A model generated the notes under the pieces. The model saw only the letters and a program-made list of their open reading frames with translations, was not told where the DNA came from and did no database searches. The translations under genes and the position numbers were made by a program. From contig OY969938.1 of NCBI GenBank assembly GCA_963704755.1, forward strand, positions 1,920,001-1,952,000: a stretch of DNA of 32,000 bases, in the 5' to 3' direction. Origin of the DNA: an uncultured Chloroflexia bacterium (GTDB lineage Bacteria; Chloroflexota; Anaerolineae; Anaerolineales; Anaerolineaceae). Shown piece by piece: positions 2,693 to 24,355 of this stretch (position 1 is its first letter; the number at the start of each line of letters is the position of its first letter).

Positions 2693-2772
2693 TCCCAGTC
2701 GGCTGAGTAGTTACAAAACTTCTATTATTGATACTTGGGGTAGTCCTCGGGGTTGAAAACCGAGCGACCGCT

Positions 2773-3933
2773 CTAACAATACTCTACCTGCACATCCTTA
2801 TTAAACCCGGTCAGCACGGCTGCGATCTGGTCGATCAGGTATCGCCGGATGGAGATGTTTTTGGGCAGGAGCGGGTTCTGATAGAACGGGTTGATCGACT
2901 GGCCGACCACGAACTGGACGGTATCGGCGACCAGCATCTCGCGCGCCAGCAGATAAGCCCCGTTGTTAGCCGCTTCCAGCCGGTCCAGGCTGCCGCCGGA
3001 CTTTTCCAGCAGGTCCAGCACGGCCGCCAGGGTCAGGATGCCCTCGGTGACCAGGTCGATGCCCGGCAGTTTGCCGATCGGCGGGACGGCGTCGTCCAGC
3101 GAGCTCATCACCGTCTCGACCTTGGTCTTCAGAAAACCGGCCACGATGTTGGCCGTGGTGCCGCCGCAAACTACCTTGCGGCCCTTAAAATCGAGCAAAC
3201 GATCCACGTAGACGTAATCAAAGCCGTTATCCAGAGGCGGGCCGCTAAACACCATCAAGGCGTTGCGTTTGCGCAGCAGCAGGCCCACAAAGGTCGCATC
3301 GTCGCCGGCCTTCCAGCCGTACAACTGGTTGGTCATGTTCATCACCCCGTTCACGATGGTGTGGGCGGCAAAGATACGGTTTTCGAAGCCGGCTTCGATG
3401 AACCTGGCCACGTTGTCCCAGCCCCAGCCGAAATTCATGGTCGTCCCCAGGCCGGCGTACAGCACGCCGTCACTGATCAGCCCGAGGAAATCGCCCATTT
3501 CCAGTTTACCTTCGGTCACCGAGATAGTCTTCTTGAGGATCTTTTCTTTAACACTCTCCAGCTTGACAATCTTGCCATTCTTCAGGTAAAAAGGCTCGGG
3601 GTTATCGAAGTTGATCACCCGGAAGGTGTCATCGAGATGGTTGACGATCAGGATGGTGAAGGTGGCGTAGGCGATATGGCGCTCTTTGCAGACCGGCAGC
3701 GTGCGAATGACCGTGTCGATCACCTCGCGCAGCTCGATCTTTTCACGCAGCATGGTGGTGATAATCTCGGTCGTCATGGTGGCCAGGATGTTGGCCTTGA
3801 CCCCGCTGCCCAGGCCGTCGGAAAGCACCACCGTGGTAATGCCGGCCGACTTGATCACCCGGACCTGGTCGCCGCACAGCTCCTCGCCGGACTTGTTCAA
3901 GTTGTGCTGGAAGATGTCCAGAAAGGCATCCAC
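2773..3933 (-). CDS. SpoIIE-type PP2C serine phosphatase with about 170-aa C-terminal domain of unknown function
   Basis: The PP2C metal-ligand motifs VLSDGLGSG, LISDGV and GDDATFVGL are present. The GTG start directly abuts the TAG of the upstream PAS gene, with AAGGAG 9 nt upstream. Size and architecture resemble the phosphatases found in hydrogenase regulatory loci (HfsC-like). Confidence 0.8.
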   Translation of the reverse strand: MDAFLDIFQHNLNKSGEELCGDQVRVIKSAGITTVVLSDGLGSGVKANILATMTTEIITTMLREKIELREVIDTVIRTLPVCKERHIAYATFTILIVNHLDDTFRVINFDNPEPFYLKNGKIVKLESVKEKILKKTISVTEGKLEMGDFLGLISDGVLYAGLGTTMNFGWGWDNVARFIEAGFENRIFAAHTIVNGVMNMTNQLYGWKAGDDATFVGLLLRKRNALMVFSGPPLDNGFDYVYVDRLLDFKGRKVVCGGTTANIVAGFLKTKVETVMSSLDDAVPPIGKLPGIDLVTEGILTLAAVLDLLEKSGGSLDRLEAANNGAYLLAREMLVADTVQFVVGQSINPFYQNPLLPKNISIRRYLIDQIAAVLTGFNKDVQVEYC

Positions 3934-4467: not shown

Positions 4468-4794
4468 CTAGCGGCCCCAGCTTGATTCTACAGGCGAAGC
4501 ATTTTCCTTCAAAGTGATTTCCGCCCGCGGCTGAAGGCCCTCCAGGCGGGTGAGCACCTCATTGACCAATTTCTGGCGGACATTGCCCTTGTGAACGCCC
4601 AGGATCAGGTCGTCACCCAGTTTCAGCGCCACACCTTTGGCACACACGCCCAGGCAAAAGGCGCCTTTCAATTGCAGCCGGTTTTCCAGGTGATATTCGG
4701 CAAACAACGCCTGCAGTTCCGGCAGCACTTCATAGACACCTAACTGGTGGCAGGCGGACCCCATACAAATGTAAAGCGTTGGAAGATCATCCAT
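4468..4794 (-). CDS. Thioredoxin-like [2Fe-2S] ferredoxin (small NuoE-fold protein)
   Basis: The Cys pattern CMGSAC ... CLGVC (C-x4-C ... C-x3-C) is typical of thioredoxin-like 2Fe-2S ferredoxins found in HydABC/Hox-type loci. Confidence 0.7.
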   Translation of the reverse strand: MDDLPTLYICMGSACHQLGVYEVLPELQALFAEYHLENRLQLKGAFCLGVCAKGVALKLGDDLILGVHKGNVRQKLVNEVLTRLEGLQPRAEITLKENASPVESSWGR

Positions 4795-4822: not shown

Positions 4823-4867
4823 GGGTGCTTGTTTTGGGCGGCGAAACGCCGCCCAAAACAAGCACCC
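4823..4867. repeat. Perfect 21-bp palindrome (apex GGCG-AAA-CGCC) inside the operon, between the NuoF-like and ferredoxin genes
   Basis: gggtgcttgttttgggcggcg (4823-4843) is the exact reverse complement of 4847-4867. It lies in the 160-bp gap between 4794 and 4955. Confidence 0.75.
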
Positions 4868-4954: not shown

Positions 4955-6598
4955 TTACCTTACTTTCGAATAGACCGGGATCTCGACCGGAACCGGCTCG
5001 GTGTTGGCTCGAATTTTCTCCAGGTACTCCTCGCGGAAATAGCGCAGCGAGCTGAGGATCGGGTTGGGAGCCGCTTTCCCCAGGCCGCACAGGCTGGTCG
5101 AGGCCACCATTTCGCACAGGTATTCCAGCATCTCCAGGTCGGATTCGACCGCCTTGCCTTCGATAAATTTGTTCAACAAGTTGTAAATCTTCACATTTCC
5201 GATCCGGCAGGGGGTGCATTTCCCGCAGGATTCGTCCATGCTGAACTCCATGAAATACTTGGCCACGTTGAGGATGCTGGAAGTATCGTCGATGACGATG
5301 ATACCACCTGAACCCATGATCGAGCCCAAACGGTTCAAAGTTTCGTAATCCACCGGCGTATCCAGCAGCAATTCGGGGATGCAGCCGCCGGAAGGCCCGC
5401 CGGTCTGCACCGCTTTGAAGTCGTGCCCGTCCGGGACACCCCCGCCGATATCGTACACAATTTCACGCAGGGTGATGCCCATGGGTACCTCGATCAAGCC
5501 GGTGTTCTGGATCTTGCCGGTCAGGGCGAACACTTTTGTGCCCTTGCTCTTTTCGGTGCCGACCGAGGCAAACCAGGCTCCGCCATTGCGGATGATGTGC
5601 GGCACATTGGCATAGGTCTCGACGTTGTTGATCAGGGTCGGCCGGCCTTCCAACCCGCTGATCGAGGGGTAAGGCGGCCGCGAGCGCGGCGTGCCCCGGT
5701 CGCCCTCGATCGAATTGATCAGAGCCGTCTCTTCGCCGCAGACGAAGGCCCCCGCCCCCAGGCGGATGTCGATGTTGAACGAAAAGTCCGAGCCGGCGAT
5801 GTTCTCACCCAGCAGCCCGTTGCGTTCGGCCTGGCGGATGGCCACCTTGAGGCGTTTGACCGCCAGCGGGTACTCGGCGCGCACGTACACGTAGCCCTGC
5901 CGGGCCCCTACCGCATAGGCCGCGATGATCATGCCTTCCAGCACGGCGTGCGGGTCGCTTTCCAGGATCGAGCGGTCCATGAAAGCGCCCGGGTCGCCCT
6001 CGTCCGCGTTGCAGATCAGGTATTTCAAATCATTGGCCTGGTCGTGGACCAACTGCCATTTGGTGCCGGTGGGGAAACCGCTGCCACCGCGCCCGCGCAG
6101 CCCGCTGGACTTGATTTCATCTACAACCCCCTGCGGCGACATGGCCGTAATGGCTTTGACCTCACCCAGGTAGCCGCCCTGAGCGATGTAATCTTCGATC
6201 TTTTCCGGGTTGACTATGCCGGAATGTTTGAGGGTCACCTTGTGCTGGCGGGTGAAAAACGGTGTGGTGGTGTCGATGACCAGGCGTTTTACCGGCTGGG
6301 CATTGAGCGAATCGAGGATCTCCGGCACATCCTCGGGGGAGACGGTTTTGTAGAGGATGCCGTCTGGTTGAATCGAGACGATCGGCCCGGCCGCGCACAG
6401 CCCCATACAGCCCACCGGCTTGATGCCCACCACGTTCTCCAGGCCGCGCTGCTTGATCTCTTTTTCCAGGCTGGCGATAATCAGCGAACTGTTCGATGAA
6501 ACACAGCCTGTACCGGTGCACACGTGGATTACGTGCTGGTAGCGCGCCTGCATTTCGTGTTCCTTTTCAGCAATTTGGTTCAGCGTTGACTCATCCAT
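4955..6598 (-). CDS. NuoF/HoxF-like NAD(H)-binding flavoprotein (51-kDa family) with N-terminal thioredoxin-like 2Fe-2S domain
   Basis: N-terminal CTGTGC ... CMGLC. FMN site GLRGRGGSGFPTG. NADH site GAGAFVCGEETALI. N3 4Fe-4S motif SCGKCTPCR ... C. There is no C-terminal 2x[4Fe-4S] extension. The start overlaps the upstream gene by 8 nt. Confidence 0.9.
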   Translation of the reverse strand: MDESTLNQIAEKEHEMQARYQHVIHVCTGTGCVSSNSSLIIASLEKEIKQRGLENVVGIKPVGCMGLCAAGPIVSIQPDGILYKTVSPEDVPEILDSLNAQPVKRLVIDTTTPFFTRQHKVTLKHSGIVNPEKIEDYIAQGGYLGEVKAITAMSPQGVVDEIKSSGLRGRGGSGFPTGTKWQLVHDQANDLKYLICNADEGDPGAFMDRSILESDPHAVLEGMIIAAYAVGARQGYVYVRAEYPLAVKRLKVAIRQAERNGLLGENIAGSDFSFNIDIRLGAGAFVCGEETALINSIEGDRGTPRSRPPYPSISGLEGRPTLINNVETYANVPHIIRNGGAWFASVGTEKSKGTKVFALTGKIQNTGLIEVPMGITLREIVYDIGGGVPDGHDFKAVQTGGPSGGCIPELLLDTPVDYETLNRLGSIMGSGGIIVIDDTSSILNVAKYFMEFSMDESCGKCTPCRIGNVKIYNLLNKFIEGKAVESDLEMLEYLCEMVASTSLCGLGKAAPNPILSSLRYFREEYLEKIRANTEPVPVEIPVYSKVR

Positions 6599-7103
6599 GG
6601 TTAAGCCACTCCTCGATTTTGCCTTTCATCTCGTCCACTGACATTTTTCCGGTAATCTTGCCGTCCAGGATCATCACCGGGGCCAGGCCGCAGGCGCCCA
6701 GGCAGCGCGCAGTCAGGAAAGAAAGCTTGTTGTCGCTGGTGGTCTGGTTGGGATCCAGGCCGTATTTTTCTTTCATGTATTCGACGATTTTGTCGTTGCC
6801 TTTGACGTAACAGGCCGTGCCGGTGCACAGGATCAGCGAATGTTCGCCGGCCGGCTTGCTGGTAAAACTGTTATAGAAGGTCGCGACGCCGTAAACTTTG
6901 GCCAGGGGCACTTTTAATTCCTGGGCCACGTAAGCCATGGCGTCCGGGTCGATGTAGCCGAATAAATCCTGGATCACGTGCAGGGTCTGGATCAAGGACC
7001 TGGGCGAGAATTTGTTATTCTTCATGGTGACGTACACCAGTTTCCAGCGGCGGTCACTCAGGTCCACTTCAATGCGAGTATGGGTAGGGGTAGCGATGGT
7101 CAT
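6591..7103 (-). CDS. NuoE/HoxE-like 24-kDa-family [2Fe-2S] subunit
   Basis: CTGTACYVKG ... CLGACGLAPVM is the Complex I 24-kDa / 2Fe-2S thioredoxin-like signature. The 170-aa size is typical of HoxE/HydC. Confidence 0.88.
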   Translation of the reverse strand: MTIATPTHTRIEVDLSDRRWKLVYVTMKNNKFSPRSLIQTLHVIQDLFGYIDPDAMAYVAQELKVPLAKVYGVATFYNSFTSKPAGEHSLILCTGTACYVKGNDKIVEYMKEKYGLDPNQTTSDNKLSFLTARCLGACGLAPVMILDGKITGKMSVDEMKGKIEEWLNHG

Positions 7104-7146
7104 AACTTAAATTTCCTTTTGTTGGAAATAGAGATTTAAGAAGAAG

Positions 7147-7309
7147 AACCACAGAGCACACAGAGTTCACAGAGTAAAGAAAGAAAAGAAAAAATTTGCT
7201 GTTTGAAAGAACAATGGCTTAAAGTGGATCGGCCCGGTCTCCAGACCGAGGCCGCTCTTCTGCTCTGGTCAGAAAGACTAACCACGGAGGCACGGAGAAC
7301 ACGGAGAAG
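7147..7309. repeat. Composite dispersed element, copy A: triple heptad (CACAGAG x3), purine-rich spacer, 33-nt core, then triple heptad (CACGGAG x3)
   Basis: aaccacagagcacacagagttcacagag at 7147-7174. Core gatcggcccggtctccagaccgaggccgctctt at 7227-7259. aaccacggaggcacggagaacacggagaag at 7280-7309. The same core, and the CACGGAG triplet (one of its two flanking triplets), recur in the second copy at 23604-23753. Confidence 0.8.
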
Positions 7310-7382
7310 AATTTTTTGGGGAAGGAAATTGCACATGACAGCAAAATTTCCTACCATTTAATCTTTTCCATAAAAATCTTTC

Positions 7383-7409
7383 CTCCGTGTTCTCCGTGCC
7401 TCCGTGGTT
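7383..7409. repeat. Inverted copy of the CACGGAG triple heptad (27-bp perfect inverted repeat with 7280-7306)
   Basis: ctccgtgttctccgtgcctccgtggtt is the exact reverse complement of aaccacggaggcacggagaacacggag. The arms are separated by 76 nt. Confidence 0.85.
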
Positions 7410-7429
7410 GATTTCTCTTTGTTAATTTC

Positions 7430-8266
7430 CTACATAAATTTGTTGACGATTAACCGGAAAATATCGGTTTCGGTGATGATTCCGCACAGGCTGCGGGCGG
7501 CATCGAGCACCGGCAGGCTGTGGATCTTGTTCTCCTGCATCAGTGCGGCCGCCTTGGTGATCGGGTCGGTTTCGCTGACGGTGATTGGGGCGCTGGTCAT
7601 GATGAAGCGAGCCGGTGTGGTCAGGATCTGCTTGGTGATCTCGTACTGTCCCTCGGCCGCCGCGCCCGGCGCGGCGCTCAGCAAATCGGTGCGGGTGATG
7701 ATGCCCACCAGCAGCCCTTCCTGGACGACCGGCAGCGCACGGATGTTCTTGACCGCCATCAGGCGTTGAGCGTCCAGCAGGGTGGTGGCCGGGTGGATCG
7801 TCTGCACATCACGGCTCATGTAGTCGCTCACCAGGATCATCTCGCGCAGCGAGGGGAATTCTTCGATCAGCAGGCGGAACATGTCGGTCGAGGTGACGAT
7901 CCCGACCAGGTTTTTATCGTCCGCCACCACCGGCAAGGCGGCGATCTTGTTTTCCTCCATCATGCGGGCCGCTTTGGCCGCGCGGGCGTTGCCGTTGATG
8001 GTGATCACCGGGCGCGACATCAACTTTTCCAGTGGGGTGTTGCCCACCCGGCGGTATTGGTCCCAGGCGTCTTTCATCACGGTGGTCACATCGGCCCGCA
8101 GCAAATCGCGTTTGGTGACAATGCCCACCAACTGGCCCTCGTCCACCACCGGCAAAGCGCGGATGCTCTCCCGGTTCATGACGCGCAGCGCATCGTGCAA
8201 GCGCATGTGCGGGTCGGCTTTGATAATCTGGGTGGTCATCCATTGACGGACCAGGTCTTTTTTCAT
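7430..8266 (-). CDS. CBS-domain protein (four CBS repeats, two Bateman modules)
   Basis: Four repeats follow the pattern hhhLPVVDxxxLVGIITxxDLh (for example IRALPVVDEGQLVGIVTKRDLL and IHSLPVLDAARSLCGIITETDIF). A GGAGG Shine-Dalgarno site is present. Confidence 0.88.
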   Translation of the reverse strand: MKKDLVRQWMTTQIIKADPHMRLHDALRVMNRESIRALPVVDEGQLVGIVTKRDLLRADVTTVMKDAWDQYRRVGNTPLEKLMSRPVITINGNARAAKAARMMEENKIAALPVVADDKNLVGIVTSTDMFRLLIEEFPSLREMILVSDYMSRDVQTIHPATTLLDAQRLMAVKNIRALPVVQEGLLVGIITRTDLLSAAPGAAAEGQYEITKQILTTPARFIMTSAPITVSETDPITKAAALMQENKIHSLPVLDAARSLCGIITETDIFRLIVNKFM

Positions 8267-8410
8267 GATTGCCTCCGGTAAATAGGTACGGTCTTAATAT
8301 ACTCAGCCCCAGGCGATAGCGCATCGCCTGGGGCTTTAATTATCGCTAACCAAATGGTTGAAAAAAAGAGGGCCGCTCTCAATAAAATGGTTGAGAATAA
8401 ATGTTTTAAA

Positions 8411-8461
8411 TTCGAGATGGGGTAGTTTTTGGGCTTCGCCCAAAAACTACCCCATCTCGAA
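8411..8461. repeat. Perfect 24-bp palindrome (apex GGGC-TTC-GCCC)
   Basis: ttcgagatggggtagtttttgggc (8411-8434) is the exact reverse complement of 8438-8461. It lies between the permease stop codon (8466) and the start of the CBS gene (8266). Confidence 0.75.
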
Positions 8462-8465
8462 ATTT

Positions 8466-9221
8466 TTAAGAAACAGCCTTGCGATAAACTCGGGTGGCCC
8501 ACCACAGCACCAGCGCGGTCAACGGCACCATCACCAGGTAGGCTTCCAGCACTTTGCCGTCCAACAGTGTCCCGGCGGCGAGGACGCGGGAGGCCTCTAC
8601 GACGTAGTACATCGGGTTGAAGTGGGCGATGGCCTGCAGCCATTTCGGGCCAAGCGAGAGCGGCAGCAGCACGCCGGCCAGCAGGGTCAGCGGCAGTTGC
8701 AGGCCGGTGACCACGGCGGCCAGGCTGCCGATCTGTTTCAGGATCAGCCCCAGGCTGCCCGAGGCCGCCGAAATGACCGCGGTCAGCAGGGCCAGGAGCA
8801 GGAACAGCACCGCCAGGCCGGCCCAATGCAGGTGAAAGCCGAACGGCGCGGCGATCAGGACCACCAGCAAGGCCGGCACGATGAACATGACCACGTCCTT
8901 GAGCACCGACCCCATCAGCAGCGAGAACCGGCTGGCGGGCGTGACCCGCAAGCGCTCGATGACGCCGCTCTGCAATTCCCAAATTACGATCCAGCCGGAC
9001 CCCATCCCGGCGCCAAACGCCATCAGGACCAGGATACCCGGGACGAACAGGTCCAGCACATTGCCCGAGCCCAACATCTGTTTCATGCCGTCCAGCAGAG
9101 GCGCGAACAGGGCCAGGTACAGCAGAGGTGTGGTCAACCCAGAGATCAGCCAGACCGGCTGGCGCAGGGTTTCCAGCATCTTTCTCCAAAACAATAAGCG
9201 AATCTCGCGGAGCATTTTCAT
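8466..9221 (-). CDS. ABC-2 type transporter permease (DrrB-like)
   Basis: About 6 hydrophobic segments with an ABC-2 family layout. Its ATG overlaps the TAA of the upstream ATPase gene by 1 nt (TAATG). Confidence 0.82.
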   Translation of the reverse strand: MKMLREIRLLFWRKMLETLRQPVWLISGLTTPLLYLALFAPLLDGMKQMLGSGNVLDLFVPGILVLMAFGAGMGSGWIVIWELQSGVIERLRVTPASRFSLLMGSVLKDVVMFIVPALLVVLIAAPFGFHLHWAGLAVLFLLLALLTAVISAASGSLGLILKQIGSLAAVVTGLQLPLTLLAGVLLPLSLGPKWLQAIAHFNPMYYVVEASRVLAAGTLLDGKVLEAYLVMVPLTALVLWWATRVYRKAVS

Positions 9222-10210
9222 TACAGACCTTCCTTAGCACCGGCGTCGCGCATGGAGCGCCCGGTTTTCTTGAGAAACACGTCATCCAGGGATGGCTGGG
9301 AGAGGGAAACCGTATCGAGAACGGTACCGTTGGCTTTGAGCCTATCGAAGACCAGCGGCAGGCTCTTCGCACCGTCTTCGACGTATAAATGGATCTGCTC
9401 ACCCTGCAGGTGCGATTCGCGCACGTAGGCCTGGCCCCCCAGGTACTGCTGGATCTTGTCCAGCTCGGCCCCATCCGATTTGGGCTTGATGACGATCACG
9501 TCGCCGGAAATTTGCTGCTTCAACGCGTGCGGGGTGCCCTCGGCCACAATCTGGCCGTGATCGATGATCGCCAGGCGGTCGGCCAGCTCGTCGGCCTCTT
9601 CCAGGTAGTGGGTGGTCAGGAATACGGTCGTGCCGCCGGCGCGCAGCTCGCGGATCTGGTCCCACAGGTTGGCCCGGTTTTGCGGGTCCAGGCCGGTGGT
9701 GGGCTCGTCCAGAAAGAGCACTTCCGGCCGGTGGAGGATGCCCAGGGCGATCTCCAGGCGGCGCTTCTGCCCGCCCGAAAAAGTGCGCACGATGCGGTCG
9801 ATCAGCTCGCTCAACTCGAACGAAGCGATCAATTCGGCCGCGCGCTTTTCGGTCTCCTCGCGGCTCATCCCGTAAAGCTGGCCGGCCAGCAGCAGATTCT
9901 CGCGCCCGGTCGCCGACAGGTCGGCCCCACCCAACTGGCTCACAAAACCAATCCGCCGGCGGACTCCCTGGGGCTGTTTTTGTACGTCCACCCCGGCCAC
10001 AAATGCTTTGCCCTGGTCGATGGGCAAAAGGGTAGTCAACATACGCAGGGTGGTGGTTTTGCCGGCCCCGTTTGGGCCTAAAAATCCAAAAATTTCACCC
10101 CGCTTTACGGCTAAATCGACCCCTTTAACGGCCTCGATCGATTTCTTCTTCCCTTTTTCCGCATGGTAGAAGCTTTTTTTAAGATCGATCGTTTCGATTG
10201 TGCTTTCCAT
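9221..10210 (-). CDS. ABC transporter ATP-binding protein (DrrA/daunorubicin-resistance-like)
   Basis: Walker A GPNGAGKTT, signature FSGGQKRRLEIA and Walker B LFLDEPTTGLD, plus the C-terminal extension typical of DrrA-like ATPases. GGAGG Shine-Dalgarno site. Confidence 0.9.
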   Translation of the reverse strand: MESTIETIDLKKSFYHAEKGKKKSIEAVKGVDLAVKRGEIFGFLGPNGAGKTTTLRMLTTLLPIDQGKAFVAGVDVQKQPQGVRRRIGFVSQLGGADLSATGRENLLLAGQLYGMSREETEKRAAELIASFELSELIDRIVRTFSGGQKRRLEIALGILHRPEVLFLDEPTTGLDPQNRANLWDQIRELRAGGTTVFLTTHYLEEADELADRLAIIDHGQIVAEGTPHALKQQISGDVIVIKPKSDGAELDKIQQYLGGQAYVRESHLQGEQIHLYVEDGAKSLPLVFDRLKANGTVLDTVSLSQPSLDDVFLKKTGRSMRDAGAKEGL

Positions 10211-10347
10211 TAATTCGCCTCCATAAGTCAGTCATTCCATCCGTCTTGCTAACCGGATGCTGCTTATAGTAGCGGTTCAATGGGTGAAGCGCTTTCACCC
10301 CGGCCGGGTGATTCCGGGGGTGAGAAGTATATAGTTGCTTTGCAGTA

Positions 10348-11214
10348 TTATTCGGCTTTGTGCAAAACCTCGCGCAGGGCGGCTGCCCATTCGAACGGCA
10401 TATCCATAAACGAGCCATGATGGCCGGGGAAGATCACCAGTTCGCAGTCAAGTTGCTGCGCCAGGAGCTGATTGGCCCGCACATACCAGGTATTGCGCTT
10501 TACTCCCCACTCCCCTACCGCAATCACCATACGGACCCCGTTTTGCTTGATCTTCTCCACGCCCGGCAGGTAATTGGTCACCGGTAGCAGCTCCAGTTTT
10601 ACCAATACCTCGGAAGCAGCCCGATCGCTCAGATACGGCTCGCGGCTGTGCTTGCGGTGGCCATTGACCGGACCGGTAGCTTTGATCAACGCTCGGAACG
10701 GAAGCTGGGTGCCGAGCATAAACCGTAACGCGGCCCAGGAAGGGCCCATGCGAAAAGCCATTGCGTACACACCGGCAAAAAAGCGCTGCCATTTTCTGGC
10801 TTCCGGCAGCAGCCGCGGGAGCGGGGCTTCGTGGATGATGGCCGCCTTCAGCGCCCCCGGCTGGGTCTTGGCCATATCCAGGGCAATCACTGCCCCGCTG
10901 CTGTTGCCCAAAACGAAAGCCGACCTCTCGCCGGCTGCATGCAGCACAGCGACCGCGTCCCGGCTTTGCTGGCTGATCTCGAAGTTTTGCGGGGCATTCA
11001 TGCTGCTCCGGCCGTTGGCGCGCCGGTCGTAGGTAATCACCCGGTATTCATCGGACAGGATGTCGGCGACGAAAGAATACTGCCAGCCATCTCCCCCGGC
11101 CGGCGGAATCAGCAACAACGGCTTGCCTGCACCACGCACTTCATAGTACAGTTCATCCCCCTCGGTCGCTACCAGGCCAGATTGGATCACACCTTGTAGA
11201 TTTGGCATTTTCAA
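10348..11214 (-). CDS. Alpha/beta-fold hydrolase
   Basis: Nucleophile elbow GNSSG, an HGG-like oxyanion region (LLLIPPAGGDG) and a C-terminal FPGHHGSF (catalytic His region). The TTG at 11214 has the best Shine-Dalgarno spacing. An alternative ATG lies at 11208. Confidence 0.8.
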   Translation of the reverse strand: MKMPNLQGVIQSGLVATEGDELYYEVRGAGKPLLLIPPAGGDGWQYSFVADILSDEYRVITYDRRANGRSSMNAPQNFEISQQSRDAVAVLHAAGERSAFVLGNSSGAVIALDMAKTQPGALKAAIIHEAPLPRLLPEARKWQRFFAGVYAMAFRMGPSWAALRFMLGTQLPFRALIKATGPVNGHRKHSREPYLSDRAASEVLVKLELLPVTNYLPGVEKIKQNGVRMVIAVGEWGVKRNTWYVRANQLLAQQLDCELVIFPGHHGSFMDMPFEWAAALREVLHKAE

Positions 11215-11367
11215 TGCCGTCCTTTCGCTCGATTAGATCATTACCGACACTTCCGTTTCAGGCGAGCGGTATTCTCAAATTTGGATATTTTCTCGTTTGC
11301 ATCGAGAAACCTTGATATCTTTAAAAGACTGTAACTTCTCTGGCCCATATTGAGTAGTCCCTGAATT

Positions 11368-11967
11368 TTAACGGTTCTCGATTGACCCTGACTGCCAGGG
11401 TTTACCCAGCAGACCATAGAAGAACAAAGCACCCAGGTCGAATTGAACCTTCTTCGGCAGATCGGTCCGGGTGATGCTGGAATTGAACATACCGATGTAC
11501 ATCAGGATGGCCTCATCGGACAGTTCCGCAGCGATGCTGCCTTCCTGTTTGCCCTGGGCGATAAGATCGCGAAAGATTGGCAGGATGCGAGTCTGGTAGT
11601 ATTCCGCCAGAAATTGTTGCAGAGATGGATCCTGGTACGCTTCGGCCTGGAAAAAATCCTCGCTATACTGCTGAGTCGTATCCATCCGGACCGTAATCAT
11701 CTGCTCGAATTTTTCTCGAAATGGAATGGGGCTATCGACCAGCGCCTTGAATTCCCCTGCCTTGATGTTCATAAAAGTAAAGACAGCCTGTCGGGCCAGA
11801 TTTTCCTTGTTTCCAAAGAAATTATAGATGCTCACCTGCGAAACGTCCGCTCTTTGGGCGATTTCTGCGATACCGACCGCCTTGACACCCTGGGCAGCAA
11901 ACAATTCAAATGCCGCTTGCAAAATTTTGTCCTTGATCTTTTCTCTGCGCCGTTCAAATCCGTTCAT
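11368..11967 (-). CDS. TetR/AcrR family transcriptional regulator
   Basis: The N-terminal helix-turn-helix FELFAAQGVKAVGIAEIAQRADVSQVSIYNFFGNKENL is the TetR_N signature. The 199-aa size fits the family. Confidence 0.9.
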   Translation of the reverse strand: MNGFERRREKIKDKILQAAFELFAAQGVKAVGIAEIAQRADVSQVSIYNFFGNKENLARQAVFTFMNIKAGEFKALVDSPIPFREKFEQMITVRMDTTQQYSEDFFQAEAYQDPSLQQFLAEYYQTRILPIFRDLIAQGKQEGSIAAELSDEAILMYIGMFNSSITRTDLPKKVQFDLGALFFYGLLGKPWQSGSIENR

Positions 11968-12124
11968 TTATTCCGCCTAATGCGATTTTGGAGAGTATTT
12001 AAGGAATGCCAAGAATTTGAACGTATCGGCATTTGAGCTGGGGAGCGAAACTCCTCGAAAACCGCAACAGCTTTGTGCTTTGCTATTGATTAATCACGTT
12101 CTGTCAGGGCTAGGATACCTTAAG

Positions 12125-12155
12125 TTGTGAAATATATCAATGATCAGTTTCACAA
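12125..12155. promoter_or_regulatory. Candidate TetR operator O1 (TTGTGAAA-N15-TTTCACAA)
   Basis: An 8-bp perfect inverted repeat with a 15-nt spacer ends 3 nt upstream of the -35 box. It has the same half-site and spacing as O2. Confidence 0.55.
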
Positions 12156-12158
12156 GTA

Positions 12159-12186
12159 TTGACAATCCGGCCAGAAAGGCTACAAT
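12159..12186 (+). promoter_or_regulatory. Sigma70-type promoter for the CocE/NonD hydrolase gene
   Basis: TTGACA (12159-12164), a 16-nt spacer, then TACAAT (12181-12186). An AAGAGGA Shine-Dalgarno precedes the ATG at 12234. Confidence 0.6.
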
Positions 12187-12218
12187 TATGAAATATATTT
12201 TGTTTATTTTTCATAATT
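12184..12218. promoter_or_regulatory. Candidate TetR operator O2 (AATTATGAAA-N15-TTTCATAATT)
   Basis: A 10-bp perfect inverted repeat with a 15-nt spacer overlaps the -10 box and the predicted transcription start. Confidence 0.55.
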
Positions 12219-12233
12219 TAAGAGGATTGCTAC

Positions 12234-13862
12234 ATGACCTTAATGACCAGAGCTATTGCCAGGGCTTACCATCTGCCTAGAGCCGAAACATACCATATCC
12301 TCGTCGAGAAGAACTTACCCGTCCTTCTGCCCGATGGGGTCACCCTTTATGCCGACCATTTTTACTCACCGGACCTGCCCGATCGGCCGACGCTTTTGAT
12401 CCGTACAGCGTATGGCAAGGATCCGGCCGGGTTTGTGGGGCGGTTGTTCGCCGAACGCGGCTTTCAAGTGGTCATTCAAAGCGCACGCGGCACCGACGAA
12501 TCGGGAGGCGTGTTCGATCCCTTCCGGCAGGAAGGCGAGGATGGTGCGGCAACCATCGCCTGGCTGAAAACGCAGCCCTGGTTCACCGGCGAGCTGGTCT
12601 TGAGCGGAGCAAGCTACCTGGGCTATACCCAATGGGCACTCGCCGCTAAAGCCGGTGCTACAATCAAAGCCTATTCCACCCAGACCATCAGCGCCGATCT
12701 GCACAGTATGCTTTATTTTGGAGGCCCACTGGCCCTGGAAATGTGGATCGGATGGCTGTCTTCTATTCATACCGCCAAAACACCGCTGCAATTGGTCGGC
12801 CTCAATCGCAAGATCAAGAAGACCGTCGAGCAGCTTCCATTGATCGAAATCGACCAGCTCTCGTTCGATAAAAAGTACTCCTTCTGGCAGCAATGGTTGG
12901 AACACAAAGACCCTACCGACCCATATTGGGCCAAAGGCGATTTTCGCCAGGAGATTGGCGAAATCGATGCGCCTAACCTGATGATCGATGGCTGGTACGA
13001 CTTCTTCCTGCCTCACGAACTGCGCGATTACCGGGCACTGGTCGAATCCGGGCATTCGCCCTATCTGCTGATCGGCCCCTGGACGCATTTCGACACCTCC
13101 CTGCAATTCACGGCCATCCGTGAGGGCATCGCCTGGCTACGCGGGCATCTGTTGGGCGAGCGCAACAGACTGCCGGAATCACCCGTTCGCGTATATTTGA
13201 TGGGGGCAAATAAATGGATGAATTTTTCCACCTGGCCGCCGGAAGGCTCCAGTAGCCAGAACTGGTATTTACAATGCACAGGTAACCTGGCAAACACGCC
13301 TCCCCCCGCCTGCCCTCCGGACCGGTACCGCTACGATCCGGCCGATCCTACGCCCAGCGTGGGCGGCGCCGGGCGGACCATCGGTCGAGGCGCCGGCTCG
13401 CAGGATAACCGGGCCTTGGAAGCCCGCCCAGATGTCCTCACTTACACGACAGAGGCTTTACAAAAGGACTTGGAGATCATCGGCCCGGTTTCAGCGGAAC
13501 TATTCGTCCGTTCCAGCCTGGAATACACTGACTTCTTTGTACGCGTGTGCGATGTCTTTCCGGACGGCAAATCGATGAACGTTTGCGATGGCATCCTGCG
13601 CCTGGCACCCGGGCAGCCGGCCGCACTGGCGGATGGCTGCAAGAAGATCCGCGTCGAGCTATGGCCCACCGCCTACCAGTTCAAACAAGGGCATCGCCTG
13701 AGGGTACAGGTCTCCAGCGGATCCTTTCCCCGTTTTGCCCGCAACCTGGGCGCCGGCGAGCCGATCGCTACCGCCACGGCGATGATACCGGCCGACCAGT
13801 CGATTTATCATGATCCCGAACACCCCTCCGTGATTTTCCTGCCGGTGTTTACGGATCGGTGA
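12234..13862 (+). CDS. CocE/NonD family hydrolase (S15 X-Pro dipeptidyl-peptidase fold)
   Basis: N-terminal LPDGVTLYADHFYSP...PTLLIRTAYGK, nucleophile GASYLGYTQW and a C-terminal beta-sandwich motif GHRLRVQVSSGSFPRF. Confidence 0.88.
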   Translation: MTLMTRAIARAYHLPRAETYHILVEKNLPVLLPDGVTLYADHFYSPDLPDRPTLLIRTAYGKDPAGFVGRLFAERGFQVVIQSARGTDESGGVFDPFRQEGEDGAATIAWLKTQPWFTGELVLSGASYLGYTQWALAAKAGATIKAYSTQTISADLHSMLYFGGPLALEMWIGWLSSIHTAKTPLQLVGLNRKIKKTVEQLPLIEIDQLSFDKKYSFWQQWLEHKDPTDPYWAKGDFRQEIGEIDAPNLMIDGWYDFFLPHELRDYRALVESGHSPYLLIGPWTHFDTSLQFTAIREGIAWLRGHLLGERNRLPESPVRVYLMGANKWMNFSTWPPEGSSSQNWYLQCTGNLANTPPPACPPDRYRYDPADPTPSVGGAGRTIGRGAGSQDNRALEARPDVLTYTTEALQKDLEIIGPVSAELFVRSSLEYTDFFVRVCDVFPDGKSMNVCDGILRLAPGQPAALADGCKKIRVELWPTAYQFKQGHRLRVQVSSGSFPRFARNLGAGEPIATATAMIPADQSIYHDPEHPSVIFLPVFTDR

Positions 13863-13961
13863 ATTTTTCCAGTATTCAGACAGGATCTTAATCCAGGCAA
13901 TTCCCTTACCGCAATTTACGATGTTTCCTTGTGGATCTTTTCCTATGTTAAAATCAGACCC

Positions 13962-14645
13962 ATGGAGCACCCAAACCCTACCCGTTCCCCCAATCATGAT
14001 AAGACCCGGCCGCCAATCGCGATCTCCAAGGACCGCCTGGTATCTTTCAGCGATGCGGTTATCGCGATTATTATCACCATCATGGTTTTAAACATCCCGC
14101 TGCCGGACACCTTCGACAGCGCCGCGATCTTATACCTGTTAAAGTCTATTCTGGTGTTCTTCGTCAGCTTTATTGTGGTGGGCTCGCAATGGAACAAGCA
14201 TCATTTCTTGATGGAACGCGTCCAGACCATCTCCAACATGATCATCTGGCGCAATTTGTTGTTCCTGTTTTTTCTGTCTCTCATTCCCATCTTCACCAAA
14301 TGGGTCATGCAGAACCCCGATGAGCCCGTCCCTGCCATCGGCTATGCCATCGTCTTTTTGCTGGTCAACGGAAGCTACCTTTTCATCTGGACTAGCGTGA
14401 TGCGCCGCGGCGATAACAAAGACGTCCACCGGGATTTCGATCAAATGAGCCCACGGGGTAAATTCTTCTGGTGGCTGCGATTTGCCTTGATGCTGGCCCT
14501 CTTTTCAGGCATTGCCCTGTTCACGCTATCCAACCCGCGTATTGCAACGATCCTTTTCATCGCCTTTCCGGTAGCCTCTTCGCTGATCAACCTTTTTATC
14601 GAGAACAACCGCAGTTTCGGGATCGCAAGTGACCACTCGGCTTGA
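13962..14645 (+). CDS. TMEM175-like (DUF1211) potassium channel family membrane protein
   Basis: The signature RLVSFSDAVIAIIITIMVL (RxxxFSD in TM1) is followed by about 6 TM segments. The track ORF begins at a TTG at 13929, but I prefer the ATG at 13962. Confidence 0.75.
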   Translation: MEHPNPTRSPNHDKTRPPIAISKDRLVSFSDAVIAIIITIMVLNIPLPDTFDSAAILYLLKSILVFFVSFIVVGSQWNKHHFLMERVQTISNMIIWRNLLFLFFLSLIPIFTKWVMQNPDEPVPAIGYAIVFLLVNGSYLFIWTSVMRRGDNKDVHRDFDQMSPRGKFFWWLRFALMLALFSGIALFTLSNPRIATILFIAFPVASSLINLFIENNRSFGIASDHSA

Positions 14646-14651
14646 GGGGGA

Positions 14652-15137
14652 TTTCAGTGATCCGGTATTTCAGTGATTCAGTGTTTCAGTGATTCGGTAT
14701 TTCAGTGATTCAGTTTTTCAGTGATTCAGTTTTTCAGTGATTCAGTGTCTCGGTGAAGAAAAGTGTCAGGGAAGTGATACTGTGTTTCAGTGATTCAGTA
14801 TCTCGGTGAAGAAAAGTGTCAGGGAAGTGAGACAGTGATTAAGTGAAATAGTGAGGCAGTGAAACACCGCAACACTGGAACACCGAAGCACTGAAACACC
14901 GCAACACTGAAACACCGAAGCACTGGAACACCGAAGCACTGAAACACCGCAACACTGAAACACCGAAGCACTGGAACACCGAAGCACTGGAACACCGCAA
15001 CACCGCAACACTGAAACACCGCAACACTGGAACACCGAAACACTAAATCACCGAAGCACTGGAACACCGAAACACTGAATCACCGAAGTACTGAAACACC
15101 GCAACACCGAATCACTTCCCCTGACACTTAGTTCTTC
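14652..15137. repeat. Octamer minisatellite / foldback array
   Basis: The left part holds about 12 units of tttCAGTG/attCAGTG. A 46-nt direct repeat (14732-14777 and 14785-14830, 1 mismatch) carries the box gaagaaaagtgtcagggaagtga. About 36 octamers follow in an unbroken 8-nt phase (14831-15117), alternating nnnCACCG and nnnCACTG. The terminal inverted box tcacttcccctgacacttagttcttc (15112-15137) closes the array. Confidence 0.9.
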
Positions 15138-15781
15138 CCGATCGTCACATAGCCTTCCTGGATGGCATACAGCGCGGCCTGGGTGCGGCTGTCGAGCTGT
15201 AATTTGGCCAGAATACGGCTGACGTGCGAGTGGACGGTCGCCCGGCTGACGACCATCTTTTCGGCGATCTCCTGGTTGTTCAGCCCCTGGGCGATGCAGG
15301 TCAAGACCTCTTTTTCCCGTTCGGTCAACGTCTCCGGAGCGGCTTTGGGCGCCGGTGGTTGAGACAGCTCGGCCAGCAGCTTGCGCGCGATGGCCGGGTG
15401 CAGGGACGATTCGCCGCGCTGGACCTGGTGGATGGCCCGGATCAGGTCATCCGGGTCCGAATCTTTCAATAAATAGCCGGCCGCGCCGGCCTTGATGGCC
15501 GCAAACACTTTATCGTCCGTGGTGAAGCTGGTCAACACCAGTACGTGGGCGTCCGGGTCCAGGCTGCGCATCTTTTGAATGGCTTCGATGCCATCCATGA
15601 CCGGCATGACCAGGTCCATCAGCACCACGTCCGGCCGCAGGGACGCGTATTTCTCCAACGCCTCGGCGCCGTTGGCGCATTCACCGGCCACTTCCAGGTC
15701 CGGCTCGGTTTCCAGCATAGCAACCATGCCCTTGCGCACCACCGGGTGATCGTCAACGACCAGGATCTTGATCTTCGCCAT
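15128..15781 (-). CDS. NarL/LuxR-family response regulator (REC + HTH_LuxR)
   Basis: VDDHPVVRKG, phospho-acceptor region DVVLMDLVMPVMDG and the LuxR helix-turn-helix LTEREKEVLTCIAQGLNNQEIAEKMVVSRATVHSHVSRILAKL. GGAGG Shine-Dalgarno site. Confidence 0.92.
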   Translation of the reverse strand: MAKIKILVVDDHPVVRKGMVAMLETEPDLEVAGECANGAEALEKYASLRPDVVLMDLVMPVMDGIEAIQKMRSLDPDAHVLVLTSFTTDDKVFAAIKAGAAGYLLKDSDPDDLIRAIHQVQRGESSLHPAIARKLLAELSQPPAPKAAPETLTEREKEVLTCIAQGLNNQEIAEKMVVSRATVHSHVSRILAKLQLDSRTQAALYAIQEGYVTIGKN

Positions 15782-17363
15782 ACGGCACCTCCACCTGAAT
15801 GAGCGTACCCGAGCCGGGTGCGCTTTGGATCGACAATTTCCCGCCCATAGCCTGCACTCTTTCCTGCATGTTCTTCAACCCCAGGCCGTCCGGCGGGACC
15901 CGGCCCACATCGAACCCGCGACCGTCATCACGAACGCGCAGGCGTACCTGCCCGGCCGCCTGGTCCAGGTCCACCCACAGGCGGCCCGCCCCGGCGTGCT
16001 TGATCACGTTATTGAAGGCCTCCTGGGCGATGCGATACAGGTTATCTTCCACGTCGCGTGGCAGAGGTTCCGCCAACGCCAACTGTTGGAATACCTCGAT
16101 GCTGCTGCGGCCTTCTACCGCGTTCAGGCGGTGCTGCAAGGCGCCCACCAACCCGTTTTTCTCCAGCGAGGCCGGGCGCAGCTCGAAGATCAGCAGGCGC
16201 ATCTCCCCCAGCACATTGCGGGCAGCGTTATCCAGCTCGGCCAGGTACTTGTCCACCGCTTCGAAACGGCCTTTCGCCTGCTGGCGGCGGGCCGCGCGGG
16301 TAAATAAGGTCATGGCGTACAGCGATTGGCTGATCGAATCGTGCAGATCACGCGCCAGGCGGGCGCGCTCCTCGGCTACCGCGGTCAATTGAATACGCCG
16401 GTACAGGCGGGCATGATCGATGGCCACTGCCACCTGCCCGGCAAAGGAACTCGCCGTAGTAATATCGTGGGGCAGAAAATACCCGGGGTGCTGGTAAATC
16501 TCCAGGAAGCCGGAGGGCGTCTCCTGGCCGCTCCACAGCGGGACCAACAGGATCGAGACCGGCTCTCCTCCCTCGCCGGCAGCCCCTTTGACGTTGAACA
16601 AGACCGGTTCGCGCCGCTGCGCGTTCTCGCTCCAGGCCGAAAGGCTGCCTTCGTCCAGCGGTGAGGGCGCCACCCGCCCGGTCTGGTAGGCGATTTGCAT
16701 ATGGCCGTTATCGTCCGCCAGGCGGATGACGCAGCCCAGCGCAGCCGTCAGCCGGACGGCTTCCTGGGCGATCAAATCGAGCACCTCTTCCAGGTCCACT
16801 TTGTTGAGGATCGCCCGGGTGATCTCTTGCAGGCTGAGCGCCTGGTGAAGCTGCTGGCTGGTCACCTCGTACAGGCGGGCGTTGTCCAGCGCCAGGGCCA
16901 TCGAGCGGGTGACCGCGTCGGCCAGGCGCACCTGCTCGGCCGGCAGGCGGAAGCCGGGCTGCTGCCAGGCGAACAGCACCAACCCCAGCAGGGTGCCGTG
17001 ATTGGCCAGCGGGTAGATCAGGAAAGACTTGGTTTTAAGGCCGGCCAGGAGAGAAGGCCCGAACTGCCGGCGCTCAGCCTCCGTCACCACCGAAAAGGGC
17101 CGCGGGCTCTCGATCAGATGCGCCAGCAGCACGTCCACGGCCGGGTCGAGCGGGCCGGACCAGAAAGCCTGTTTTTCGGAAAGCGAAAGCATGCCCAGGG
17201 CAATGACCGGGTCGAGCGGCCCGGCCGGGTCGTTGCGCCGATAGACAAAGACCTGATCGGCGGTGGTCAGTTCGATCAGCGTCCAGGTCAGTTCTTCCAG
17301 CGCCACCCGGGTCGATTCGACCGCAGGCAGTTCGGGTAATGTGGAAAACGAGATTTCAACCAT
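15753..17363 (-). CDS. GAF-GAF sensor histidine kinase (HisKA_3 + HATPase_c)
   Basis: H-box LARDLHDSISQSLYAM (HisKA_3), N-box AQEAFNNVIKHAGA, G-boxes DDGRGF and GLGLKNMQERV, and two GAF-like regions at the N-terminus. It overlaps the regulator gene by 29 nt. Confidence 0.88.
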   Translation of the reverse strand: MVEISFSTLPELPAVESTRVALEELTWTLIELTTADQVFVYRRNDPAGPLDPVIALGMLSLSEKQAFWSGPLDPAVDVLLAHLIESPRPFSVVTEAERRQFGPSLLAGLKTKSFLIYPLANHGTLLGLVLFAWQQPGFRLPAEQVRLADAVTRSMALALDNARLYEVTSQQLHQALSLQEITRAILNKVDLEEVLDLIAQEAVRLTAALGCVIRLADDNGHMQIAYQTGRVAPSPLDEGSLSAWSENAQRREPVLFNVKGAAGEGGEPVSILLVPLWSGQETPSGFLEIYQHPGYFLPHDITTASSFAGQVAVAIDHARLYRRIQLTAVAEERARLARDLHDSISQSLYAMTLFTRAARRQQAKGRFEAVDKYLAELDNAARNVLGEMRLLIFELRPASLEKNGLVGALQHRLNAVEGRSSIEVFQQLALAEPLPRDVEDNLYRIAQEAFNNVIKHAGAGRLWVDLDQAAGQVRLRVRDDGRGFDVGRVPPDGLGLKNMQERVQAMGGKLSIQSAPGSGTLIQVEVPYGEDQDPGR

Positions 17364-17496: not shown

Positions 17497-17668
17497 AGCT
17501 TTGCTGTCCAATCGGCGTTTTAAGTAGGAAGGAGGCAAAATGCGCCGGCCTGCCGGGGCAGACCCTCCTCCCTCGTTGCCTTGTTGCCTAATCTCTATTC
17601 TCTTTTCTCTCATCTCTCCTCTCCGATTACTTTTCCCTCCACCGCAAAAGTCTGTATAATTCTTAGTA

Positions 17669-21932: not shown

Positions 21933-21991
21933 GCAGGTGTTTTTATTATTTTTTGTGTGCTTCGCACACAAAAAATAATAAAAACACCTGC
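21933..21991. repeat. Perfect 28-bp palindrome (apex GTGC-TTC-GCAC) in a divergent promoter region
   Basis: gcaggtgtttttattattttttgtgtgc (21933-21960) is the exact reverse complement of 21964-21991. It lies between the nfeD-like start (21874, -) and the GH1 start (22218, +). Confidence 0.8.
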
Positions 21992-23594: not shown

Positions 23595-23603
23595 AGAAAG
23601 AAT

Positions 23604-23753
23604 AACCACGGAGGCACGGAGCGCACGGAGAAGAAGGAAGAGTTTAAGAAGAGGAAAGAAGTTTTAAGGCAGATCGGCCCGGTCTCCAGACCGAGGCCGC
23701 TCTTATTGGCTGATCAGATATTGCACCGCAGAGACGCAGAGGGCGCTGAGAAG
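23604..23753. repeat. Composite dispersed element, copy B: CACGGAG x3, purine-rich spacer, identical 33-nt core, then CGCAGAG-type x3
   Basis: aaccacggaggcacggagcgcacggagaag at 23604-23633. The core gatcggcccggtctccagaccgaggccgctctt at 23672-23704 is identical to 7227-7259. caccgcagagacgcagagggcgctgagaag at 23724-23753. A degenerate third core lies at 23914-23956. Confidence 0.8.
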
Positions 23754-23972
23754 ATTTTTAAAAAGAGCGCCGTCGTAGGGTGCGTTTGAGGGCTGACTTC
23801 CCAAGCAGGGTTGGACGACCAGAACACTGGCCAACCCTGACGTGCCCGGAACGCACCATTATGGCGCCGCCTTGTAAGAGAAACTGTTATTAAAAGAAAG
23901 ATAGCCCAAAGCAGATCGGCCCGGTCTCTCCCTCCTTTCCGTTGGCCGAGGCCGCTGAGAAATGTAGAGTAC

Positions 23973-24140
23973 GGTGGGTGTAGGGCTCATTTATAACGCT
24001 GGCGACCTATACAACGGCGAGATCTACGAAACCTTGCCCGTAACCCACCGTTCTGTCCGGATGGTGGGTTACGGGCAATATCCCGGGATGGGACAACTAA
24101 TCTTTATTCGCCAGCATTGTTTATGAGCCCTGCACCCACC
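23973..24140. mobile_element. MITE-like foldback: about 33-bp imperfect terminal inverted repeats (28/33) flanking a perfect 16-bp hairpin
   Basis: ggtgggtgtagggctcatttataacgctggcga (23973-24005) pairs with tcgccagcattgtttatgagccctgcacccacc (24108-24140). The internal hairpin is ttgcccgtaacccacc (24034-24049) with ggtgggttacgggcaa (24063-24078) and a 13-nt loop. No transposase is present. Confidence 0.4.
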
Positions 24141-24355
24141 CTACAGCTGCCTTTTAAAGCCCGTAGGTTGGGTTGCGGGCGTATTCGTGGGACTTGGCTA
24201 TAAACAGGATGTTTGGTCATTTAAACCTTGCCCACAGCCTATAGGCCTTTTCAAAAAACTGCTAAAATAATGACGTGGGGGTTTATGCAACAGGGGGTGA
24301 TTCTCACCCAATGTTCTGCCTTCGCTCCCACCAAATGGCATCGCCATACGGCGAA

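Follow-up and report, generated by a model that had tools for sequence, protein, structure and literature searches.

An octamer minisatellite arranged as a probable imperfect foldback between two convergent genes of an Anaerolineaceae-like Chloroflexota bacterium

How does a gap between two bacterial genes come to consist of one short unit repeated dozens of times, and does such a gap do anything for the genes that it separates? We addressed this question in a 32,000-nt stretch of contig OY969938.1 (assembly GCA_963704755.1; hereafter the window, in whose coordinates all positions are given), where a 482-nt array of octamers is the only sequence between the stop codons of two convergent genes, one for a TMEM175-family membrane protein and one for a NarL/GerE-type response regulator. 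The reading that we favour, and consider probable, is that this element is a non-coding, lineage-specific octamer minisatellite that was grown by slippage and forms an imperfect foldback, with a two-way barrier at RNA 3' ends as its likeliest effect. Its identity as a long-unit simple-sequence repeat (SSR, or minisatellite) is the firmer part, and we regard it as quite likely, while a barrier acting in both directions against read-through and 3' decay is a tentative proposal to which we would give somewhat less than an even chance. The parts of the element are as follows.

14646-15127, 482 nt: the octamer array, filling the whole gap from the TGA of the TMEM175-family gene (plus strand) to the TAA of the response-regulator gene (minus strand).
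14643-14665, plus strand: left degenerate head TGAGGGGGAtttcAGTGATCCGG, a copy of head M that overlaps the TMEM175 stop and is followed by 13 units.
14652-14755, plus strand: left array of 13 octamers, with 16-nt dimers and 32-nt higher-order repeats (Tandem Repeats Finder (TRF) and unit table).
14756-14808, plus strand: module 1, 53 nt, made of the spacer AAGAA, head M1 AAGTGTCAGGGAAGTGA (14761-14777) and about five GTG-type octamers.
14809-14861, plus strand: module 2, 53 nt, made of a spacer, head M2 (14814-14830) and four nnnAGTGA-type octamers, ending at the strand switch.
14862-15117, plus strand: right array of 32 octamers in strict nnnCACCG / nnnCACTG alternation (AACACCG/ARCACTG).
14873-14989, plus strand: 117 nt inside the right array, 2.4 repeats of an exact 48-nt (six-unit) block.
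15112-15129, minus strand: head M' AAGTGTCAGGGGAAGTGA (read on the minus strand), an inverted copy of M1/M2 with a two-base overlap with the regulator stop, followed by 32 units.

The head-to-tail iteration of a unit within the 5-11-nt range was beyond chance by three measures. TRF returned arrays of period 8, 16 and 32 at 14651-14756 (0% indels), a 53-nt repeat at 14720-14863 and arrays of period 16 and 48 at 14860-15115. Autocorrelation over 14646-15130 was 0.62 at lag 8 and 0.74 at lag 16, compared with about 0.25 at other lags. A three-unit CACYG pattern (CACYGNNNCACYGNNNCACYG) had 25 matches in the window, all within 14671-15085 and 23 of them in the right array, and had none in 100 shuffles. 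An earlier note, made from the letters of this stretch alone, had described the gap as almost wholly octamers, and its coordinates and unit types held when the sequence was read again, with two amendments. Its left block does consist of CAGTG units, but these number 13 instead of about 12 (6 TTTCAGTG, 2 ATTCAGTG, 2 ATTCAGTT and 1 each of ATCCGGTA, ATTCGGTA and TCTCGGTG). Its unbroken 8-nt phase is real inside the right part, where the 8-mer layout runs without an indel from 14828 to 15115, but does not extend across the whole region, as the two 53-nt modules at 14756-14861 shift the phase. The 6-7% "indels" that TRF assigned at periods 16 and 48 arise because an odd unit, CACCG CACCG (14996-15011), shifts the 16-nt register and not the 8-nt one. 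In total there are about 54 units: 13 on the left, about 5 plus 4 in the modules and 32 on the right. The right array is A 41%, C 34%, G 17% and T 8% on the plus strand; seen from the minus strand it is an array of GTG-type units downstream of head M', and the switch of strand falls at 14861/14862, between CAGTG and AAACACCG.

The element is built from four "head + array" modules, three on the plus strand and one on the minus strand, whose outer heads overlap the two stops. The head motif, AAGTGTCAGGG(G)AAGTGA, occurs in four identical or nearly identical copies, one of them inverted, and each is followed by GTG-type octamers (13, about 5, 4 and 32 units, in order). Head M has exactly 2 exact matches in the window where 0.03 would be expected, with no further copy elsewhere in the 32 kb. 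Modules 1 and 2 agree at 41 of 53 positions, with the first 22 nt identical and a TRF period of 53. The termini are inverted, since the left end (TGAGGGGGAtttcAGTGATCCGG) matches the reverse complement of the right end (GTCAGGGGAAGTGATTCGG) by direct comparison and alignment, and pairs between the left head and the right end are the outermost ones in the minimum-free-energy (MFE) structures. Within the right array there is an exact 69-nt run at lag 48, and 14892-14939 and 14940-14987 are identical (48/48); this exact duplication of a 48-nt block implies that the right block has recently grown by several units at a time.

Relatives indicate that the array is young. At four related loci (L282-L285), the regulators are 75-80% identical and the same GAF-HisKA_3 kinase and gene order are found, while no array lies downstream of the regulator. 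A 70%-identical TMEM175 orthologue (L071) sits in another neighbourhood and has only three CACGAAA-type units after its stop. Given this absence from the regulator loci and the few, different units after the TMEM175 orthologue, we consider the array to be lineage-specific; such non-conservation at orthologous positions in more distant relatives is also a property of SSRs. In L071 we further observed, at 10760-11650 and 3' of the TMEM175 orthologue, at least 4 copies of a ~180-nt repeat (…CCGGGCCGCCCGCAAC…GGTCGATTTCGGCG…GGGCGGCCCAGTGAG…), an unrelated dispersed or tandem family.

The array is also where two assemblies of near-identical strains disagree. For this comparison we used independent Logan contigs from run ERR11571143 (L070, corresponding to 12503-14729, and L406, corresponding to 7379-9678), both of which end at an array, as expected of k-mer assemblies. 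L070 reproduced the left junction, from the end of the TMEM175 gene into the array, together with the first 78 array nt. Differences were found at 4 of these 78 array bases and at 2 of ~4450 non-array bases, a roughly 100-fold higher density in the array that is possibly an artefact. The four array differences (14679, 14695, 14711 and 14727) are all C to T, lie exactly 16 nt apart and always fall on the C of GATTC within a dimer's second unit, in units that otherwise keep their private variants. All six differences, including those at 8470 and 9414 relative to L406, are C:G to T:A transitions. The periodic changes may have arisen in parallel at the same site of each unit, or one assembly may contain errors from polishing or sequencing. 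A methylation motif (a GANTC site) was considered as their cause, but that contig shows no change at its two GAATC sites.

Taken with the nested 16/32/48/53-nt periods and the 69-nt lag-48 run, the absence from relatives and the concentration of assembly differences in the array make a slippage-generated minisatellite the best supported of the three options that the earlier note had put forward; its other two, a protein-binding array and a cruciform-forming insulator, are taken up below.

The opposed blocks can pair. Left and right blocks are 70-83% complementary, and the best complement of the left block is the outer right block at 15033-15116 (81-83%); for instance, GATTCAGTGTTT at 14675-14686 is the reverse complement of 15070-15081, as had been pointed out before. 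Predicted folding exceeded that of shuffled sequences for plus-strand RNA (-179.2 kcal/mol, z -7.2), minus-strand RNA (-221.5 kcal/mol, z -12.2) and single-stranded DNA (-90.8 kcal/mol, z -6.2), so the long-range pairing that the earlier note had called possible is borne out at the level of prediction. The difference between the two RNA strands arises because positions of the 16 CACCG units that can pair as G.U in the minus-strand RNA are A.C mismatches in the plus-strand RNA; as the asymmetry of a single locus, it is not separable from chance. The region had also been judged non-coding, and we agree: there is no plus-strand open reading frame (ORF) of at least 20 aa, and the three minus-strand ORFs (62-82 aa), which begin at GTGs of the repeat itself, translate into Cys-rich repeats and match nothing in Pfam. 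These open frames are by-products of the repeat.

A role at gene ends is suggested by the surroundings of the element. Eight perfect or near-perfect hairpins with arms of 21-33 nt and a 3-nt TTC spacer occur in the window (1202-1254, 1448-1492, 2630-2692, 4823-4867, 8408-8464, 21933-21991, 27052-27120 and 31932-31984). Most lie just past gene ends, and several have flanking A and T runs, like two-way terminators. Two further cases, described below, are an array-built inverted repeat just past the CBS stop and the array and hairpin elements between the cistrons of a ccm operon in a related genome. As most gene ends in the window are followed by a long hairpin, the foldback most plausibly fills the gene-end hairpin slot between the two convergent genes. 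As a separate observation, the hairpins at 2630 and 31932 have GAATTTGATGTG in common and may form a dispersed family.

We propose the following history. A short GTG-type octamer array would have been seeded directly after the regulator stop, beside the purine-rich head AAGTGTCAGGGGAAGTGA. The head-plus-array segment would then have been copied in inverted orientation, and this inverted copy duplicated in tandem to give the three plus-strand modules, after which the arrays may have grown independently through slippage or unequal exchange of one to six units. RNA running out of either gene would contain the U/G-rich block first and its A/C-rich complement second, and could fold into a hairpin of ~480 nt. 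The foldback might thereby impede read-through from both sides as well as 3' exonucleases, so that each of the convergent genes is insulated from the other.

Several observations weigh against this proposal. The arms are imperfect (70-83% complementary) and unequal (210 vs 268 nt), and the inner right arm, recently amplified, has no pairing partner, so that pairing does not appear to be tightly maintained. No intrinsic-terminator-like site (GC-rich stem plus U tract) was found within 14646-15127 by a consensus scan, and the full hairpin closes only after 230-480 nt have been transcribed. L070 ends inside the array, so only 78 array nt were compared and copy-number variation was not observed. 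Finally, the C-to-T pattern at 16-nt spacing is not predicted by simple slippage or by the spread of one variant unit. The scan of the gap found no promoter-like site either. The same imperfection and inequality of the arms speak against the earlier suggestion of a cruciform-forming insulator, which we do not retain.

The first alternative that has to be weighed is that the same slippage-grown minisatellite is a neutral by-product, tolerated as nothing lies between the two stops and without any role. Its absence from relatives, its unequal and imperfect arms with a lately expanded but partnerless inner portion, and the want of a U tract or terminator-like site in the gap would all be accounted for in this way, and comparable arrays with arbitrary unit sequences are common. 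However, the element replaces all other 3' sequence of the two genes in a window where nearly every gene end has a long hairpin, and its folding energy is far beyond that of shuffles on both strands. We therefore regard a purely neutral origin as unlikely, though it is to be taken seriously; if it were correct, the element would be an ordinary, though large, SSR.

A broader possibility, which we consider rather improbable, is that the foldback is the largest local case of an undescribed class of intergenic "array-hairpin" elements. Such elements, many of them in inverted pairs, would combine a short head or hairpin with a variable number of 7-10-nt units. They would have settled at gene ends and between cistrons in some Anaerolineales, with similar modular arrays in unrelated metagenome contigs. 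They would be spread or grown by a dedicated mechanism (e.g. hairpin-primed template switching or 8-9-nt transposase footprints) and serve as tunable RNA 3'-end or processing signals. If so, they would be a functional analogue of REP/BIME elements with a built-in length dial.

Other repeats were observed in this genome and its relatives. In further gaps of the window there are short arrays whose 9-nt units have a CAC core (CACAGAG, CACGGAG, CGCAGAG). A composite element of ~175 nt occurs in two copies (7140-7320 and 23596-23770, 80% identity), with a partial third near 23915-23960. In each of the two copies, a pair of three-unit 9-mer arrays encloses, in this order, a purine-rich spacer and the conserved hairpin GATCGGCCCGGTCTCCAGACCGAGGCCGCTCTT; the unit types differ by copy (CACAGAG/CACGGAG vs CACGGAG/CGCAGAG). 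An array-built inverted repeat (7271-7323 / 7366-7418) lies 12 nt past the CBS stop, in a CBS-NuoE gap (7104-7429) that is 326 nt long and full of arrays and hairpins. As this gap measures only 19-28 nt in L283 and L284, its contents are lineage-specific gains. An Anaerolineales metagenome-assembled genome (MAG), JALVVL010000012 (L055), contains 16 arrays of period 6-10 in 8 kb, between the cistrons of a ccm operon, and shares the CACRGAG unit family with the window. Its regions 1-520, 4600-4770 and 6860-7300 are extremely dense in arrays of 7-10-nt units and in array-built hairpins (CACAGATTA, GACGCCAAG, CGCAGAGA, CACGACC, CAGTGTTC, TTCCTAA). Arrays of period 6-10 were absent from L282 and L283, which are closer relatives of the window. 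Two further features were noted in this search. At 17564-17640, upstream of the glucan phosphorylase gene, there is a pyrimidine-rich tract with loose 7-8-nt repeats (CCTCGTTG, CTATTCT, ATCTCTC). The 633-nt gap that follows the GH1 gene contains, at 23969-24144, an inverted repeat of 37 nt whose arms are 84% complementary and 102 nt apart; it surrounds a perfect 16-nt hairpin (24034-24078) and has the look of a candidate miniature inverted-repeat transposable element (MITE) or structured RNA.

Large octamer arrays were also found elsewhere. In metagenome contigs, L295 contains a 772-nt TTACAGTG array (802-1573), L364 contains 648 nt (2653-3300) of about ten tandem modules that each combine a hairpin, GCCCCGAGACCTCGTGGG, with 3-9 TTCAGTG-type octamers, and L395 contains, at 100-520, a foldback of GGTGTTCC units that is mirrored unit by unit with arms of ~150 nt. 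Some of these large-array contigs may be eukaryotic. A genome scan placed CACTG/CACCG octamer arrays in Planctomycetota, Verrucomicrobiota, Bacteroidota and others. The idea of a special CACYG octamer conserved across phyla was nevertheless dropped, since the 69 hits are about what chance predicts for a 17-base pattern in 596 Gb and control cores were as frequent. In viral contigs, five-unit octamer arrays with the CACYG core formed 60 stretches, compared with 85, 39 and 50 for three control cores of the same composition. Octamer arrays are thus a generic class and not one with a conserved motif. In 30 co-directional gene contexts (L001-L069, L286-L405; naive ORF calls, loci not de-replicated), the CAC strand was the sense strand 23 times and the antisense strand 7 times; this no more than hints at a bias at the RNA level or linked to transcription. 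Several CACYG octamer arrays in those contexts lie directly upstream of start codons.

A more specific alternative is a non-autonomous mobile foldback or MITE-like element, with the heads and arrays as terminal inverted repeats, that was inserted or built by a transposase encoded elsewhere. The inverted head motifs at the ends have the form of terminal inverted repeats, the triplet TGA is found at both flanks, the composite element described above is dispersed and has three-unit arrays on either side of its conserved hairpin, elements of this kind have filled the CBS-NuoE gap relative to relatives, and the foldback of L395 is what a neatly mirrored element would look like. The arms of our foldback, however, are not mirrored unit by unit, and a 3-nt TGA match at the flanks is weak, being expected by chance 1 time in 64. 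Head M, unique to the element within the window, was absent from the fetched loci save for one loose match in L037, and the head plus first unit had 0 matches in the metagenome collection. Neither in the window nor in L055 did an array have a transposase nearby. A local inverted duplication of "gene end plus array" would fit better than insertion, because the right head overlaps the regulator's native stop and the similarity among the flanks of M', M1 and M2 seems to reach a few bases into the regulator's last codons (GKN-stop, with GKT-stop in one relative); in so purine-rich a stretch this is suggestive only. We consider a mobile element to be quite improbable.

Still less probable, in our estimation, is an assembly artefact, that is, a collapsed, expanded or chimeric repeat, which the earlier note had named as something that would undo its description. 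Short-read assemblies do break at this and other arrays, and in the neighbourhood of the array the differences from the independent assembly lie only within it and are oddly periodic, so the array is indeed where assemblies disagree. However, the left junction and first 78 nt are reproduced independently, and collapse does not produce an irregular order of variants, two distinct internal modules or clean junctions at both stops.

Finally, a high-density binding array or decoy for a DNA- or RNA-binding protein (the adjacent NarL-type regulator, as had been suggested, or a nucleoid protein or CsrA-like factor) could draw on the roughly 54 occurrences of a CAGTG/CACYG pentamer core at strict 8-nt spacing and on the hint of RNA-level strand bias, but is very improbable, as the array sits at the 3' ends of both genes and is missing downstream of orthologues, neighbouring arrays use unrelated units (CACGGAG, CACAGAG, CGCAGAG), the core is not enriched over control cores, and 8-bp spacing would put successive sites on different faces of the helix.

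Other candidates were rejected outright. For known RNA families, nothing in Rfam reached the gathering score; at E<1 only two plant miRNA-precursor models appeared, whose 22 bits fall far short of their gathering scores (110 and 245), and these are generic long-hairpin noise. No tRNA or tmRNA genes were found. A CRISPR array does not apply, as the octamers are contiguous and without spacers, and neither does a replication origin or iteron array, as cumulative GC skew falls monotonically across the window and the units are not DnaA boxes. Nor is this a contingency (phase-variation) locus, as the SSR lies between the two stops of convergent genes and not in a promoter or 5' coding region. The array is not a quadruplex former, because it is not G-rich.

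The genes around the minisatellite are as follows.

13962-14645, plus strand: TMEM175-family membrane protein gene (Pfam PF06736, E 1e-24; 227 aa in public gene calls), with its TGA stop at 14643-14645 overlapping the left degenerate head motif. An identical protein is encoded on a public contig of 4.87 Mb.
15128-15781, minus strand: NarL/GerE-type response-regulator gene (Pfam Response_reg and GerE), convergent with the TMEM175 gene, with its stop codon at 15128-15130.
15753-17363, minus strand: GAF-HisKA_3-HATPase histidine kinase (Pfam), the upstream partner of the regulator.

The nearest named homologues of the regulator are Anaerolineaceae/Chloroflexota MAG proteins (74-76% identity), and judged from such sequence matches the host is Anaerolineaceae-like. 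No exact counterpart came up for the regulator, the kinase or the GH1 protein. In L283-L285, CBS, NuoE-like and NuoF-like genes follow the kinase-regulator pair directly or nearly so, in the same direction. In the window they lie at 4955-8266 in the same orientation, separated from the regulator by ~6.9 kb and the array. This intervening block (8267-15127) encodes an ABC transporter, a hydrolase, a TetR protein, an S15 peptidase and the TMEM175 protein; the perfect hairpin at 8408-8464 forms one border of it and the octamer foldback the opposite one. A mechanically called 403-aa ORF at 8263-9474 is probably no gene; public gene calls have a 251-aa ABC-2 permease at 8466-9221 there, next to a 199-nt gap that holds the same hairpin.

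How does the element compare with known systems? It had been called unlike any described element, and this is true in so far as no Rfam family matches it and no description was found in the literature on Anaerolineae repeats, octanucleotide repeats or prokaryotic foldbacks; its kind, however, is known. Prokaryotic SSRs with 5-11-nt units occur in intergenic regions, vary in length, are attributed to slippage and have been little studied, and those with units of 6-9 nt are likewise intergenic, length-variable and attributed to polymerase slippage (PMC4692102). The GGGAATC repeats of Xanthomonas and Nostoc are an example (PMC4692102, citing Mrazek et al. 2007). With these our element has in common the head-to-tail short unit, an intergenic position near gene ends and proposed growth by slippage, and perhaps also their variation in length and sequence between close relatives, of which the four array differences may be a case. 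It differs in its 8-nt unit with a 16-nt dimer, its far greater length (~54 units, 480 nt), its opposed blocks able to pair and its head-plus-array modules. What is unusual is thus the size, the foldback arrangement and the modules, while the kind itself is a known long-unit SSR.

For Anaerolineaceae-like Chloroflexota, we found no description of such repeats in the searchable literature, and short tandem arrays and long perfect hairpins are unusually frequent in the intergenic spaces seen here. The arrays break short-read assemblies, and polished long-read assemblies may contain periodic base errors within them. The broader significance of the locus hinges on whether the array-hairpin pattern in Anaerolineales is a functional or self-propagating class.

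The cyanobacterial short tandemly repeated repetitive (STRR) sequences are heptamers such as CCCCAGT and CAACAGT. Like the octamers here, they are short tandem units with a CAGT core, amplified between genes of a filamentous bacterium at many loci with variants and with function unknown. They differ in unit length (heptamer vs octamer) and in host (heterocystous cyanobacteria vs an Anaerolineaceae-like bacterium), and STRR arrays are not described as foldbacks, as the array here is.

In the REP/BIME sequences of enterobacteria and in REPINs, a conserved, imperfectly palindromic sequence of 20-40 nt is scattered over hundreds of copies, which RAYT transposases mobilise; REP/BIME elements are known to protect upstream mRNA and to modulate read-through. 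They resemble our element as extragenic or intercistronic hairpin-forming repeats at 3' ends, often in inverted pairs, and the role that we propose is the same. In contrast to them, our element is a unique tandem array whose head has no dispersed copies in the window or the metagenome collection, and no RAYT (Y1) transposase was found among the window genes scanned with Pfam. The Foldback (FB) and Galileo-type transposons of Drosophila, which depend on a transposase and occur in many copies with target-site duplications, are similar in their long inverted arms of short tandem subrepeats, variable length and little or no central loop. They are, however, eukaryotic, and transposase dependence, many copies and target-site duplications are not shown here.

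Bidirectional intrinsic terminators occupy the same position, between the two stops of convergent genes, and similarly offer one hairpin that is usable from both sides. Here, however, there is no short GC-rich stem and there are no flanking A/U tracts, and the stem would comprise ~200 imperfect pairs compared with their 5-30. If the barrier role holds, this bacterium would have built a working two-way gene-end hairpin from a self-expanding minisatellite, that is, a 3'-end signal whose length and stability drift fast.

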